Origin: a virus | Lineage: Duplodnaviria; Heunggongvirae; Uroviricota; Caudoviricetes | IMG/VR virus record: IMGVR_UViG_2654587570_000008 | Direction: 5' to 3' (one strand) | DNA length: 9,071 bases | In this document: positions 1,786 through 5,748 of the stretch, in pieces | Numbering within the stretch: position 1 is the first letter of the stretch | Layout of the letters: each line of letters begins with the position of its first letter | The notes under the pieces: model-generated | Told to the model about the DNA's origin: nothing | Database searches by the model: none | The model's input: only the letters and a program-made list of their open reading frames with translations | Made by a program: the position numbers and the translations under genes

Positions 1786-2175
1786 ATGAGTATGTTTCAG
1801 ATATCAGCTGGAGTGTTCTTTGATTTAGATAAAATAGAAAAACACGATGGCACATTTGTTTTTTATTCAAATGTTGATGTGTCTTTCTCGGTGGAAAACA
1901 CCTCCCCTCTTTTTAAAGCAAATAAAATAAGTCATGATGGTATAAACTGTTATGTGGTAAACTATACTCTCCTGACCGAAAAACCAGAACGAATTGAAGC
2001 TGGAGTCGTAGTTAGGGCTGGTGATGAGGATTATAGGCAACAATTTATTTTATTATGGGAATTCTATTTTGATTGTGTGGCTAGAGTAGAAAAAGAATCG
2101 GTTAAAAAATATGTGCATTATCAAATTTTAATAAACATCACTCAAAAATTGCGCTTGAAGTTGCCCCATATTTAG
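1786..2175 (+). CDS. Hypothetical protein, 129 aa (cassette gene A); start may be the ATG at 1792
   Basis: ORF with an AAGGA Shine-Dalgarno at 1781-1785, better spaced for the ATG at 1792. Strongly AT-rich codon usage. Its TAG stop (2173-2175) shares one base with the GTG start of the next ORF. No recognisable motif or transmembrane segment. Confidence 0.6.
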   Translation: MSMFQISAGVFFDLDKIEKHDGTFVFYSNVDVSFSVENTSPLFKANKISHDGINCYVVNYTLLTEKPERIEAGVVVRAGDEDYRQQFILLWEFYFDCVARVEKESVKKYVHYQILINITQKLRLKLPHI

Positions 2176-3494
2176 TGGAGATTAACCGAAGAGTTTCATT
2201 TGATGATGTCTCTGGGTTTTCTGCTTTTATTAAAGATGTAGTGAATCTAAATAGATCTGCCTTTAAATCTTTAATGGCAGCGTTAAAAATAATTAGTGAT
2301 TCAAAAGAATCATTGTCAACCAACTTTGACCTGACTTATTCCATGTTAGTCTATGCCTTGGAGTCTTTGTCTCAAAGAAATGATAACTATAAGTCTGATT
2401 GGGATGACTACGATCAAAAAACCAGAGGTGAATTAGAGTCTGTATTTGAGCATATGCCTGGTGAGGATGTTTGTAAAATTAAATCAATACTTATTGAAGG
2501 CAAACAATTCAGATTACAAAAAAGGTTCAAAGATTTTATACTGAAAAATCTTGAAGAAAATTATTTCAATGAAACAGAGAGATATCCAATCCGCTATAGC
2601 TTCCTTAGTAGAGCTTTAGATAATTTATACAAAATCAGGTCTTCTTTTGTCCATGAGCTTAAGCCACTTGATGCAATGATCTCGAAAGCCTACAATCCTG
2701 TTGGTGATTGTCTGGTTCTTTTTGGCGAACCTCACTTCAGTTACTCTGGATTGCTTCGACTTCTTCGCCATGTGATAATAAATTTTTGCCGTAAAAACTA
2801 CAGTCAAAAAAGAGAGTATGTTAATTGGGTGATGGAAACATCGGGTGTAATGGTTGCAGAGATATCTGCACAATATTGGCTCTGGAATGCAGACGGATTT
2901 ACAGCTAAAAGTATAGCGAAGTGGTTTAGTGAATACCTAAATATGTTAAATTTAGGCGAAGTCACTGATTTGCAGTCTATCATGGACAAAATTGAGATAA
3001 TCTATGACCAATCCAAAAAAGAATATAAAAATGGGTTGTTGTATTTTTATTTCTTATATAACTTAATGCATAATGGAAATAAGGGTGAATGGCTTGAGTT
3101 TGCGAACAAGCGAAGTTCTATACTTGTTTGTGATATATATTGGTATTCATGCTCTCCATATTTATATAAATCATTTACTAATGTTTCAAATGGTATTGCT
3201 GATATAAAAACATTGAGAAACTTTTTGTCTTGTTTTAACGAATATGATAAAAATAAATTTAAGCCAAATCGTTTAAATCTCCCTGCAATGACCGAAGTAA
3301 TTATGTTGGCTTGCGCAGCAAATTCATTCTTCAGAATTGGAATGTATCAAGACTATGTTTTAATGGGCAATAGAGCGATGAGAGAAATTGCTTCAGTAAA
3401 AGATGTATTTTATTATATAAAAGAACGATTAAGTAATTCACAACTTATTGAATTGGACGAGTGCTTGAGATTGTATAGAAAAAAGGGGGGCTAA
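2175..3494 (+). CDS. Hypothetical protein, 439 aa (cassette gene B); possible HEPN-like Rx4H motif, unverified
   Basis: Long uninterrupted ORF in AT-rich DNA. It starts with GTG overlapping the upstream stop (TAGTG) and its stop TAA (3492-3494) overlaps the integrase stop. Contains R-SSFV-H at residues 155-160 (nt 2637-2654). No Walker A motif or transmembrane helix seen. Confidence 0.65.
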   Translation: MEINRRVSFDDVSGFSAFIKDVVNLNRSAFKSLMAALKIISDSKESLSTNFDLTYSMLVYALESLSQRNDNYKSDWDDYDQKTRGELESVFEHMPGEDVCKIKSILIEGKQFRLQKRFKDFILKNLEENYFNETERYPIRYSFLSRALDNLYKIRSSFVHELKPLDAMISKAYNPVGDCLVLFGEPHFSYSGLLRLLRHVIINFCRKNYSQKREYVNWVMETSGVMVAEISAQYWLWNADGFTAKSIAKWFSEYLNMLNLGEVTDLQSIMDKIEIIYDQSKKEYKNGLLYFYFLYNLMHNGNKGEWLEFANKRSSILVCDIYWYSCSPYLYKSFTNVSNGIADIKTLRNFLSCFNEYDKNKFKPNRLNLPAMTEVIMLACAANSFFRIGMYQDYVLMGNRAMREIASVKDVFYYIKERLSNSQLIELDECLRLYRKKGG

Positions 3495-3510
3495 CCCCTT
3501 TTATTTTTAA
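3483..3510. terminator. Candidate bidirectional terminator at the convergent gene ends
   Basis: Short GC stem GGGG (3487-3490) / CCCC (3495-3498) with loop CTAA, flanked by AAAA upstream and TTTTATTTTT downstream, so a U-tract follows the hairpin on both strands. The stem is short, so strength is doubtful. Confidence 0.35.
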
Positions 3511-4687
3511 CGTATTCACCCCACCAATCCATCAATTCAATTCGCTGCACGAGATAAGTAGAACGATTGTATGCTTTTCTAACTTCATTTTTATCACTGT
3601 GGGCTAAGGCAGACTCGATAACATCAGGATTTAATCCAGCTTCATTCATGGCTGTACTTGCTATTGAACGTAATCCATGGGCAACTAATTTTCCGCCAAA
3701 ACCAATACGTTTTAAAGCTGCATTTGCAGTCTGACTGTTCATTGGTTTCTTTGGGTCATTCCGACTCGGAAAAACATATTCACGATGAGCACTAATAGGC
3801 TTCATCACATTAAGAATCTCTAATGCCTGAGATGATAGAGGAATTATGTGTTCCCGTTTAGCCTTCATCCGTTCGGCAGGAATCGTCCAGAGCTTTGCAT
3901 GAAGATCGATTTCTTCCCACCGAGTACTGGAGGCTTCAGAAGGGCGCACAAGAGTCAGGAGTTGCCATTCAATTAGACAGCGAGTCGGGATAGACAGATT
4001 TGACATGACTAAAGAACGCATCAGCTTTGGTAATTCTTCAGGTCGAAGCGTCGGCATGTTTTGTTTTTTTGGCTTTTCGAAGGCCATGCCAACACCTGAT
4101 GCTGGGTTTGCATCAATCAAGCCAGTGTTAACCGCATAAATCATTATTTCGTTAATGCGTTGCACCAGACGACGTACAGTCTCTAATGCCCCACGAGCTT
4201 TGACTGGCTCAAGTGCTTCGACCAATGTTCTAGCTTTGATCTGCTGAACGGGCATCTCACCAACGGCGGGGAATACATCTTTTTCCAATGAGCGCCAAAT
4301 ATCTTTTGCATAATCAGGGGTAACACTTTTGCTTTTGAGCTGAAACCAATTAGCGGCGACCGTCGAGAAAATACTGTCCTGTGCGATTTGCTGCTGTTCC
4401 TCTGCAATTTCAGCTTGAATTTGCGGGTCAATTCCGTTGGCTAACAAGGAAAGGTAATCCGCTCTTAAGCGTCGGGCGTCAGCAAGTGAAAGGGCTGGGA
4501 AGGCTCCTAGCCCCATCATTGTCCGTTGCTTTGTTGCCGGACGTTGATAACGGAAACGCCATAACTTCTTACCGTTCGTTTTAACGAGTAGAAAAAGACC
4601 ATCGCCATCATGCAACGTTAGATCCTTTTCTAACGCTTTAGCGCGCAGTACTTCTGTGTTGGTCAGGGGGCGTGTCGTTCTTGCCAA
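3491..4687 (-). CDS. intA: P4-type (IntA-like) tyrosine integrase, site-specific recombinase
   Basis: 398-aa ORF. The N-terminus MARTTRPLT...DGDGLFLLV...KLWRFRY is typical of P4-family integrases, and the C-terminal catalytic region carries AHGLRSIAST (H-x-x-R) and a terminal Tyr in NRSTYL. It sits directly downstream of a tmRNA 3'-end att core, as intA does next to ssrA in E. coli K-12 CP4-57. Start codon is TTG (4685-4687) with an AAGGAG Shine-Dalgarno 8 nt upstream. Confidence 0.9.
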   Translation of the reverse strand: MARTTRPLTNTEVLRAKALEKDLTLHDGDGLFLLVKTNGKKLWRFRYQRPATKQRTMMGLGAFPALSLADARRLRADYLSLLANGIDPQIQAEIAEEQQQIAQDSIFSTVAANWFQLKSKSVTPDYAKDIWRSLEKDVFPAVGEMPVQQIKARTLVEALEPVKARGALETVRRLVQRINEIMIYAVNTGLIDANPASGVGMAFEKPKKQNMPTLRPEELPKLMRSLVMSNLSIPTRCLIEWQLLTLVRPSEASSTRWEEIDLHAKLWTIPAERMKAKREHIIPLSSQALEILNVMKPISAHREYVFPSRNDPKKPMNSQTANAALKRIGFGGKLVAHGLRSIASTAMNEAGLNPDVIESALAHSDKNEVRKAYNRSTYLVQRIELMDWWGEYVKNKRG

Positions 4688-4706: not shown

Positions 4707-4760
4707 ATTGGTATACGCGTTTAGGTATACATCCTACCGTATACCTAAACGTATACCAAT
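4707..4760 (-). promoter_or_regulatory. Long near-perfect inverted repeat upstream of the integrase start (candidate operator or integrase-regulatory site)
   Basis: Left arm ATTGGTATACGCGTTTAGGTATAC (4707-4730) and right arm GTATACCTAAACGTATACCAAT (4739-4760) are reverse complements apart from a 2-nt indel. They carry four GTATAC palindromic cores and lie about 20 bp upstream of the integrase Shine-Dalgarno. Confidence 0.4.
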
Positions 4761-4802: not shown

Positions 4803-4838
4803 CAAAAAAGCCCGCAGAGCTTGTGCTATGCGGGCTTT
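4803..4838 (-). terminator. Intrinsic terminator on the minus strand, downstream of the tmRNA-end remnant
   Basis: Perfect 8-bp stem AGCCCGCA (4809-4816) / TGCGGGCT (4829-4836) with a 12-nt loop. On the minus strand the hairpin is followed by U6 (complement of A 4804-4809). Confidence 0.5.
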
Positions 4839-4871
4839 CAGGATTTCTCCGGACGTATCCGGAAGAGCAAG

Positions 4872-4907
4872 TGGTGGAGCTGGCGGGAGTTGAACCCGTG
4901 TCTGAAA
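4872..4907 (-). other. Attachment-site remnant: 3'-terminal ~36 nt of a tmRNA (ssrA) gene, without the gene body
   Basis: The reverse complement of 4872-4898 reads CGGGTTCAACTCCCGCCAGCTCCACCA, the T-arm/acceptor 3' end of E. coli tmRNA as I recall it. Similarity continues with 2 mismatches to about 4907 and is then lost in AT-rich DNA, so this is a junction core, not an intact gene. Confidence 0.7.
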
Positions 4908-4936: not shown

Positions 4937-5404
4937 TTATCTGAACATGGCGTTTGCGGCGCTTTTGCGTATCTTCTCTAGACCTTTTGTAGTCCATTTC
5001 TCTGGTACAGGTGTAAACCGTAGTGCAAAATCTGCCTCCATATTATCACCACTGAAACGTGCCACTCCACGTTCCAATTTTGTTTGCCAAGTGACTTTTT
5101 TAGTTTTACCCTCTATATCTTGATATTCAATAATTAATTTTGGACCAGTGAATGATGAAGAACCGACTAATTTAAGTCTATGTGAAAGATATGCTATATT
5201 CAATAGAATATCAATTGCCGCGGTTGGTACAAAAATGTTTTTTGACTTCTTATCTATACTATATGGTAACGAAAAATCAATATCGTAAGGTGTCGATAAA
5301 GTATTGTACATATATACTTTTCTTTCTTTTATTATTTTGAATATTCCATACTGGGAGTCGGTTGTAAAAGATTTATCTTCTTTTTTGAATTTTTTCGAAA
5401 ACAA
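4937..5404 (-). CDS. Hypothetical protein, 155 aa; probably the C-terminal part of a frameshifted membrane-anchored protein gene
   Basis: AT-rich ORF with no ATG (first start candidate is TTG at 5402-5404), lying 14 nt downstream of the preceding ORF in the -1 frame. No recognised domain. Confidence 0.45.
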   Translation of the reverse strand: MFSKKFKKEDKSFTTDSQYGIFKIIKERKVYMYNTLSTPYDIDFSLPYSIDKKSKNIFVPTAAIDILLNIAYLSHRLKLVGSSSFTGPKLIIEYQDIEGKTKKVTWQTKLERGVARFSGDNMEADFALRFTPVPEKWTTKGLEKIRKSAANAMFR

Positions 5405-5418
5405 CTCTAAATATAGAT

Positions 5419-5715
5419 TTATGTTTTTTTATAATTAAAATCCCAATGATATCTAAGTGAAATTGCCGCCCCCAATCCTATGTTTGAAAATTTTGTTTGT
5501 GGAAGCGTAGGGGCTTGTAAGATATCAACATGAAAACCGTTGAAATCGTTAACATTCATCTTGATATTTAAAGTGTCTATCACTAAATTGGGTTTATAAG
5601 AGAGCCTTCTTTGAAATATCGTTAACCATATTGCATATAATGCAGCAATTGCTGAAATGAAAGTACCAACTGAAGATATGTAGGTGATTAGTTTGTCGAA
5701 TGTAATTGTAATCAA
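5419..5715 (-). CDS. Hypothetical protein, 98 aa, with an N-terminal transmembrane helix; probably the N-terminal part of a frameshifted gene
   Basis: AT-rich ORF with a hydrophobic segment ITYISSVGTFISAIAALYAIWLTIF near the N-terminus. TTG start (5713-5715) preceded by GGGGA. Ends in TAA just after an A7 run on the coding strand (T7 at 5424-5430 on plus). Confidence 0.5.
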   Translation of the reverse strand: MITITFDKLITYISSVGTFISAIAALYAIWLTIFQRRLSYKPNLVIDTLNIKMNVNDFNGFHVDILQAPTLPQTKFSNIGLGAAISLRYHWDFNYKKT

Positions 5716-5720
5716 CTTTA

Positions 5721-5748
5721 AATCCCCGATTTTAAAAATGCGGGGATT
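5721..5748 (-). promoter_or_regulatory. Stem-loop immediately downstream of int that includes the Shine-Dalgarno of the next gene
   Basis: Perfect 8-bp stem AATCCCCG (5721-5728) / CGGGGATT (5741-5748) with a 12-nt AT-rich loop. It lies between the int stop (5757) and the downstream ORF start (5715); the GGGGA Shine-Dalgarno is part of the stem. Confidence 0.3.

Follow-up and report, generated by a model that had tools for sequence, protein, structure and literature searches.

Directly after the integrase gene (int) of a lambdoid prophage, in the 9,071-nt stretch of viral DNA that we analyzed (hereafter, the window), a hairpin at 5721 to 5748 on the minus strand includes the ribosome-binding site of the next gene, and comparison of homologous junctions confirmed at the level of sequence that this hairpin is real and conserved. 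The hairpin is almost certainly a cis-regulatory RNA element of that downstream cargo gene. The explanation that we favor, to which we give about an even chance of being correct, is that the hairpin hides the cargo ribosome-binding site on RNA reading through from int and that a promoter of the cassette's own permits translation.

Genomic context of the hairpin

Sequence matches identified the DNA of the window as Escherichia coli, and its minus strand carries the left end of a lambdoid prophage. An excisionase gene (6890 to 7108, minus strand; phrog_2917, E = 1.6e-45) overlaps the start of int (5757 to 6929, minus strand), which encodes a tyrosine integrase with Arm-DNA-bind_2 and Phage_integrase domains and ends with a TAA stop codon at 5757 to 5759. 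The cargo gene follows at 4937 to 5715 (minus strand); in relatives it encodes a 259-aa protein with an N-terminal transmembrane helix that belongs to phrog_7259, a family of unknown function. The end of the prophage is marked by an att core at about 4869 to 4907 (minus strand), a copy of the 3' end of ssrA (tmRNA) that is common to the prophage and an adjacent P4-like element, and prophage homology has its left limit at 4872. The stretch that holds the cargo ORF is low in GC (~30%). A tRNA scan of the window found none. In the prophage early region (8469 to 8683, minus strand), a match to the STnc100 small RNA fell below threshold, at 42.1 bits against a gathering score of 47.

Past the att core, a P4-like satellite (1786 to 4687) lies in tandem, with its int gene (3491 to 4687) on the minus strand at the duplicated ssrA 3' end. 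The satellite has a low-GC, two-gene cargo encoding proteins of 129 aa (1786 to 2175) and 439 aa (2175 to 3494). These genes, which gave only a weak Cas13-ApeA-type PADLOC match, are probably an uncharacterized defense pair, and the same satellite slot in strain GPEC1035 holds DUF262 and HEPN genes. An IS3-family transposase at 1 to 888 interrupts the satellite, and an ALIL frameshifting pseudoknot was matched within this transposase region (1 to 72; 60.5 bits). We also observed 11-bp perfect inverted repeats at 1404 to 1431 and, just upstream of the P4-like int, at 4720 to 4749; a hairpin, AAAAGGGG/CCCCTTTT, at 3481 to 3502 between the convergent 439-aa gene and satellite int; and an ssrA-type terminator, consisting of a stem and a T run on the minus strand, at 4808 to 4837.

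The hairpin includes the cargo Shine-Dalgarno sequence

A preliminary description of this DNA had reported an 8-bp perfect stem with a 12-nt loop at 5721 to 5748, located between the int stop codon and the downstream ORF and holding the GGGGA Shine-Dalgarno sequence of that ORF within the stem, and each of these particulars was borne out. An exhaustive inverted-repeat scan gave exactly these coordinates, at which the plus strand reads AATCCCCG-ATTTTAAAAATG-CGGGGATT and the minus-strand RNA reads AAUCCCCG-CAUUUUUAAAAU-CGGGGAUU. The 5' arm, AAUCCCCG (5741 to 5748, minus strand), is the anti-Shine-Dalgarno arm, and its first three bases are the last three of an AATAAT hexamer. The 3' arm, CGGGGAUU (5721 to 5728, minus strand), contains GGGGA at 5723 to 5727; the cargo ORF begins with a TTG codon (5713 to 5715, minus strand) 7 nt further downstream. 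This TTG is the start annotated by the NCBI pipeline in identical genomes, and the N terminus of the protein is conserved in the family. The int stop codon lies 8 nt before the stem, and the TTG codon lies 5 nt after it.

Structure prediction on the minus-strand RNA, a check proposed in the preliminary description, returned a stable fold. A 66-nt RNA was predicted to fold with -16.4 kcal/mol (z = -4.4), with none of 200 shuffles as good, and the segment from the hexamer to the start codon was predicted to fold with -12.3 kcal/mol (z of -3.3). Four more A-U pairs can form within the 12-nt loop if one C is bulged out, and in junctions of the window type the pairing can reach outward as far as the stop codon of int on one side and the start codon of the cargo gene on the other. 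An Rfam scan of the window (E <= 1) gave no match at 5700 to 5780.

When drawn from a single sequence, such a hairpin is weak evidence. Block shuffles of the window produced 2.3 +/- 1.9 perfect 8-bp stems with loops of 3 to 14 nt, and about one such stem is expected per 9 kb, which by itself would agree with a chance inverted repeat that has no function in AT-rich intergenic DNA. Because a single 8-bp stem is close to chance level, the weight of the argument rests on conservation of the hairpin with compensatory changes.

Compensatory changes conserve the hairpin across homologous junctions

We recovered DNA for 21 distinct homologous junctions, 17 at first and four added later, with cargo proteins of identity down to 40%. 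The cargo gene family is small, with 21 clusters in the Enterobacteriaceae. A hairpin was present at the same position in 15 of the first 17 junctions, with stems of 7 to 11 bp by inspection and loops of 6 to 14 nt, and in all four of the added junctions, with stems of up to 13 bp, for a total of 19 of 21. Among the first 17 junctions, those with a hairpin had predicted minimum free energies of -11 to -21 kcal/mol and z scores of -2.5 to -6.9. The weak hairpin cases, L171 and L172, both occur at loci where int is only a remnant.

The stems differ in sequence among homologues (CCCCG/CGGGG, CCCCACA/TGTGGGG, TCTCGTCC/GGGCGAGG, CCCCCGGCA/TGCCGGGGG, CCCCATCAG/CTGATGGGG, and TTCCCGCTC/GAGCGGGAA), and this variety is plain by eye. 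In a nearly gapless alignment of the 21 sequences, 85.3% of cells were paired, compared to 33 to 53% when partners were slid by 1 to 3 columns, and double changes were found in 28 cells, compared to 4 to 11 in the slid controls. None of 500 column shuffles of the 21 sequences reached the observed percent-paired, double-change, or covariation values, although the relatedness of the sequences means that these shuffle tests overstate significance. A 17-sequence version of the covariation test had been run before the 21-sequence one, and RNAalifold, unaided, found the same helix. A functionless chance repeat is contradicted by this covariation and by the presence in 19 of 21 junctions of a hairpin at the same place with different stems, across cargo identities down to 40%, so that we find this explanation scarcely credible.

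In most homologues, inspection of the 3' arm identified a Shine-Dalgarno-like, purine-rich tract located 7 to 8 nt before the start codon. Since most homologues have their Shine-Dalgarno tract in this arm, the conserved pairing points to translational control of the cargo gene. The comparative data on homologous junctions support the earlier proposal that the element could regulate the downstream gene.

The hairpin belongs to the cargo cassette

Approximately 360 of 410 E. coli matches to 5400 to 6100 share int, lose homology at about 5796/5797, and carry other cargo. This break lies inside the last ~13 codons of int, and these codons (to ~5796) belong to the low-GC cargo module. The alternative cargos include a convergent three-gene cassette with a STAS-like protein, a ParA-type three-gene cassette, and, in Citrobacter phage phiNP, an AAA ATPase. 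When the motif was searched for with a covariance model, only cassettes of the 259-aa gene family matched, and neither the motif nor a match to the model was found in the alternative cargos after the same int (L003, L004, L006, and L181). Because other cargos follow the same int without the motif, the hairpin and the int tail codons are part of the cassette of the 259-aa gene.

At least four alternative contents (the 259-aa gene, STAS-like, ParA, and AAA ATPase) occupy the interval from int to att, which is a cargo hotspot, and one copy of a 259-aa homologue is cut by an IS10-like element (hotspot loci L003, L004, L006, L181, and L005). The exchange boundary is inside the int tail, so the C-terminal tail of the integrase changes with the cargo. 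An integron-like attC/attI reading of the motif was rejected, given that the motif is tied to one gene family and absent from other cargos and that int is codirectional with the cargo.

Sib-like and terminator-like functions

The preliminary description had likened the arrangement to sib, in which case read-through RNA would form an RNase III site past int and lead to 3'-to-5' decay of int mRNA. Lambda sib is located beyond att and is separated from int by integration. The hairpin in the window lies on the int side of the att core, ~810 bp from the ssrA 3' fragment (4869 to 4907). Being located between int and att, it stays linked to int in the prophage and cannot tell prophage from free phage in the way that sib can. 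The best argument for an RNase III substrate is that the window-type hairpin can be extended to ~24 bp with bulges (-16.4 kcal/mol, z of -4.4), but the outer helix joining the int stop region with the cargo start is confined to the window type, is missing from many homologues, and is equaled by shuffled 5' flanks (median fraction of 0.34), and we rejected it as a conserved element. Across the homologues, we found no long conserved duplex of the RNase III type (about two helical turns); the conserved helix is 8 to 13 bp, which is short for RNase III. Furthermore, the hairpin travels with the cargo gene and not with int. A literature search on sib retroregulation returned no matching paper. With its position relative to att, its short conserved helix, its inheritance with the cargo, and the lack of a sense-strand U tract described below, the sib-like reading did not stand, and we consider a retroregulator of this type very unlikely.

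The hairpin might instead mark a transcript boundary, either as a terminator or insulator between int and the cargo gene, possibly one acting on the opposite strand against antisense transcription into int, or as a 3' stem that protects int mRNA from exonucleases. A GC-rich stem directly after int would suit any of these roles. On the sense strand, however, at least 5 T in 8 nt followed the stem in only 1 of 21 homologues, and a terminator scan did not flag the window hairpin, findings on which we rejected a sense-strand intrinsic terminator. On the plus strand of the window, the stem is followed by ATTATT and more A/T, and at least 5 T in 8 nt were found after the stem on this opposite strand in 17 of 21 homologues, with only 4 in the window type. 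The terminator scan flagged L020 (opposite strand) and L180 (both strands) but neither the window nor L022, and counts of G.U versus A.C (17 versus 14) favored neither strand as the one that folds. Against this, the sense strand is 49% A in the segment concerned, and composition gives at least 5 T in 8 nt in 45% of trials, which indicates that the opposite-strand T-rich tail is largely due to composition and the invariant hexamer. There is also no gene or known promoter in the opposite direction, and a U tract needs no six invariant bases, two of which are A. A boundary element would leave the regular placement of the Shine-Dalgarno tract in the 3' arm unexplained, and the other cargos that follow the same int without the motif argue that the hairpin is not the terminator of int. 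On balance, we view a boundary function as improbable.

Promoter-like hexamers at the base of the stem

The AATAAT sequence at 5746 to 5751 (minus strand) abuts the 5' arm, overlapping the base of the stem, and is a predicted -10 hexamer. It is invariant in all 21 junctions, with variation in both flanks. A predicted -35 hexamer, TTGCAT (5769 to 5774, minus strand), lies 17 nt upstream within the codons for the C-terminal tail of the integrase, with TTGAAA or TTGCAA at this position in two sequences. Of the sigma-70-like pairs in the 120 nt upstream, TTGCAT-17-AATAAT ranked best in 15 of 17 sequences. A Leu codon provides the TTG of the -35 hexamer; this codon is TTG in 16 of the 17 junctions examined, and the coding constraint of int could explain part of the conservation of this hexamer. 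Promoter function alone gives no explanation for the invariant, nonconsensus A at the first position of the -10 hexamer. Both hexamers are mediocre, with 9 of 12 matches to consensus, and matches of this quality occur near chance level in the AT-rich region (10 found versus 6.8 +/- 2.6 expected).

With the usual spacing from -10 to +1, transcription from these hexamers is predicted to start at 5738 to 5741 (minus strand), with the seventh nucleotide after the hexamer, around A5739, as the likely site. This position is at the junction of the 5' arm and the loop. In partition-function models of the 21 homologues, the median probability that the Shine-Dalgarno sequence is unpaired was 0.006 for read-through RNA, compared to 0.42 for RNA that begins 7 nt past the hexamer. 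For the window, the modeled probability on read-through RNA was ~0.00, and the Shine-Dalgarno sequence still pairs with coding sequence in the modeled own transcript (-8.3 kcal/mol, z of -2.2). Low values in the own-transcript model were also obtained for L012 (0.08) and L013 (0.18).

In the metagenomic homologue L171, the only homologue with a stronger promoter-like site further upstream, we observed a decayed hairpin (~740 to 806; -3.3 kcal/mol, z of -0.5) and a much stronger promoter-like site, TTGATA-17-TATTAT, located 12 nt upstream of the usual hexamer. As a single case judged from its sequence, L171 would be in keeping with the notion that the hairpin can be tolerated only if transcription begins within it.

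The cargo gene persists without an intact int

In ~50 complete E. coli genomes, int is followed by a single 259-aa gene (WP_127490476). In the window, an A run at 5424 to 5430 (minus strand) lacks 1 nt, being A7 where GPEC1035 and ~50 other E. coli genomes have A8, and the resulting frameshift divides the gene into ORFs of 98 and 155 aa. This frameshift reflects either a sequencing error in the homopolymer or a true inactivation, and control by the hairpin may be idle in the window as a consequence of the frameshifted cargo gene.

An AlphaFold model of the cargo protein (pLDDT of 80) has a mixed alpha/beta body after the transmembrane helix. Comparison of the protein with Pfam and PADLOC gave no match, leaving phrog_7259 as its only family assignment. 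The model had no convincing match in the PDB, and a search of BFVD returned only two uncharacterized viral proteins at E <= 0.001, with TM scores of 0.36 and 0.12. A protein-alignment scan of genome contigs found no relative of the cargo, and a DNA-pattern scan for the int tail and hexamers gave only unrelated AT-rich matches in genome contigs; among other matches, the same pattern scan of viral contigs found the known viral loci again.

At several loci, the cargo gene is maintained where int is not. It is intact beside a 3' remnant of int in L017, L022, L171, L172, and L173/L174, and in L179, where there is no int match at all. Int at such loci is reduced to its last 50 to 110 codons or has an insertion sequence in its place, and L171 and L179 have no codirectional gene upstream of the cargo gene. 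Since the cargo gene stays intact without a full int or a codirectional upstream gene, it needs a promoter of its own in the short segment before it. In Enterobacter, Cedecea, and other hosts (L022 to L024, L172, L173/L174, and L179), we observed the cargo gene in degraded islands at ssrA or elsewhere. In Cedecea, it lies beside AbiTii and SymE-toxin genes, neighbors that hint at a defense or toxin-like role for the cargo gene.

A model for control of the cargo gene

We propose that a mobile cargo ("moron") cassette, located between int and att in an ssrA-integrating lambdoid prophage, has the hairpin as its 5' regulatory element. On read-through RNA from int, such as the xis-int transcripts made upon induction, the C-rich 5' arm would pair with the purine-rich 3' arm and bury the cargo Shine-Dalgarno sequence, so that the membrane protein would not be translated from this RNA. 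The cassette would have its own weak sigma-70 promoter, consisting of TTGCAT, a 17-nt spacer, and AATAAT. Because the predicted -10 hexamer shares bases with the foot of the 5' arm, transcripts from this promoter would start at ~5739, just past the arm, and by lacking the inhibitory strand would be translatable, for instance in a lysogen when int is silent.

The main competitor is simple occlusion of the Shine-Dalgarno sequence without an internal promoter, where all cargo transcripts would carry the whole hairpin. A possibly toxic membrane protein might be kept very low in this way, or the stem might be opened by ribosomes finishing int, by a trans-acting RNA or protein, or by temperature. 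Occlusion draws on the same structural evidence as the model that we favor, and the weakness of the promoter hexamers speaks for it. Moreover, the int stop codon ends 2 to 5 nt before the hexamer in all 16 junctions readable in frame, and a terminating ribosome would therefore reach the base of the stem. The stem's GC core, however, begins 9 to 12 nt after the int stop codon, and the mRNA unwound by a terminating ribosome, estimated from geometry, stops short of this distance. Behind stems of -16 to -21 kcal/mol, such as several homologues have, a gene that has clearly been kept intact would lose nearly all translation, and the stems look too stable for an RNA thermometer. The survival of the gene beside an int remnant, or beside an insertion sequence replacing int, removes coupling to int, and the invariant AATAAT island would be left unexplained. 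We consider occlusion without an internal promoter possible but unlikely.

A more ambitious form of the favored model, which we advance tentatively and would not put at even chances, is that the cassette acts as a "transcript-origin filter" in which the promoter is nested in the anti-Shine-Dalgarno arm. The cargo would be made in the lysogen from the cassette's own promoter and remain silent on strong xis-int read-through upon induction, and the filter, the promoter, and the last int codons would move between phages as one module. If the favored model is correct, a gene for a possibly harmful membrane protein could sit directly behind a strongly induced operon of a temperate phage and escape mistimed expression. 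Two products of the analysis are a small, well-defined RNA motif of ~45 nt, described by covariance model R1, and, for the uncharacterized phrog_7259 family, a promoter prediction that can be tested; this family occupies a cargo hotspot beside int. For annotators, the lesson is that not every hairpin after int should be taken for a counterpart of sib or tI.

Comparison with known systems

The closest precedent is found in IS10 and IS50, where the distal arm of an inverted repeat covers the translation initiation region and the element's own promoter starts transcription between the arms, with the result that only read-in transcripts fold and are silent. Davis, Simons, and Kleckner (1985, Cell 43:379) reportedly described this protection of IS10 and IS50 from outside transcription, termed "fold-back inhibition." This work is cited in PMC13181058. 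The junction described here has the same order of parts, with the predicted -10 hexamer, the 5' arm, the loop, the 3' arm with the Shine-Dalgarno sequence, and the start codon in succession. In contrast to IS10/IS50, the host of the element is a prophage cargo cassette rather than an insertion sequence, the upstream transcription comes from the phage's own int operon rather than from random host promoters, no antisense RNA partner is evident, and the start site is a predicted one.

A stem-loop in the 5' untranslated region of IS200 tnpA sequesters the Shine-Dalgarno sequence and blocks 30S binding (PMC4513863). It shares with our hairpin a cis-acting stem-loop that holds the Shine-Dalgarno sequence and a mobile element that guards against impinging transcription, but the IS200 stem-loop lies inside the element's own 5' untranslated region and affects every transcript, and it is a separate terminator that deals with read-in (PMC4513863). 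In our model, one hairpin would do the discriminating.

The likeness to lambda sib/tI is that a structured RNA lies downstream of int and that its effect would depend on the promoter from which the transcript came. Lambda sib is a long RNase III substrate that overlaps a terminator and acts on int mRNA stability. The long duplex with a terminator, the position beyond att, and the unlinking by integration do not hold for the hairpin in the window, and an action on int mRNA stability is very unlikely for it.

Phage morons are cargo genes that come with a promoter of their own, and one published study is said to deal with hotspots for cargo in prophages and satellites. The cassette resembles a moron as a low-GC, swappable gene in a fixed slot of a temperate phage genome, with apparently its own promoter and several alternative cargos for the slot. 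It differs from morons in having no terminator of its own after the cargo gene before the att core, in occupying a slot between int and att of a lambdoid phage, and in having an exchange boundary inside the 3' tail of int. The hairpin is a new example of a known regulatory design and, if our model is correct, would extend a trick of insertion sequences to phage cargo cassettes.
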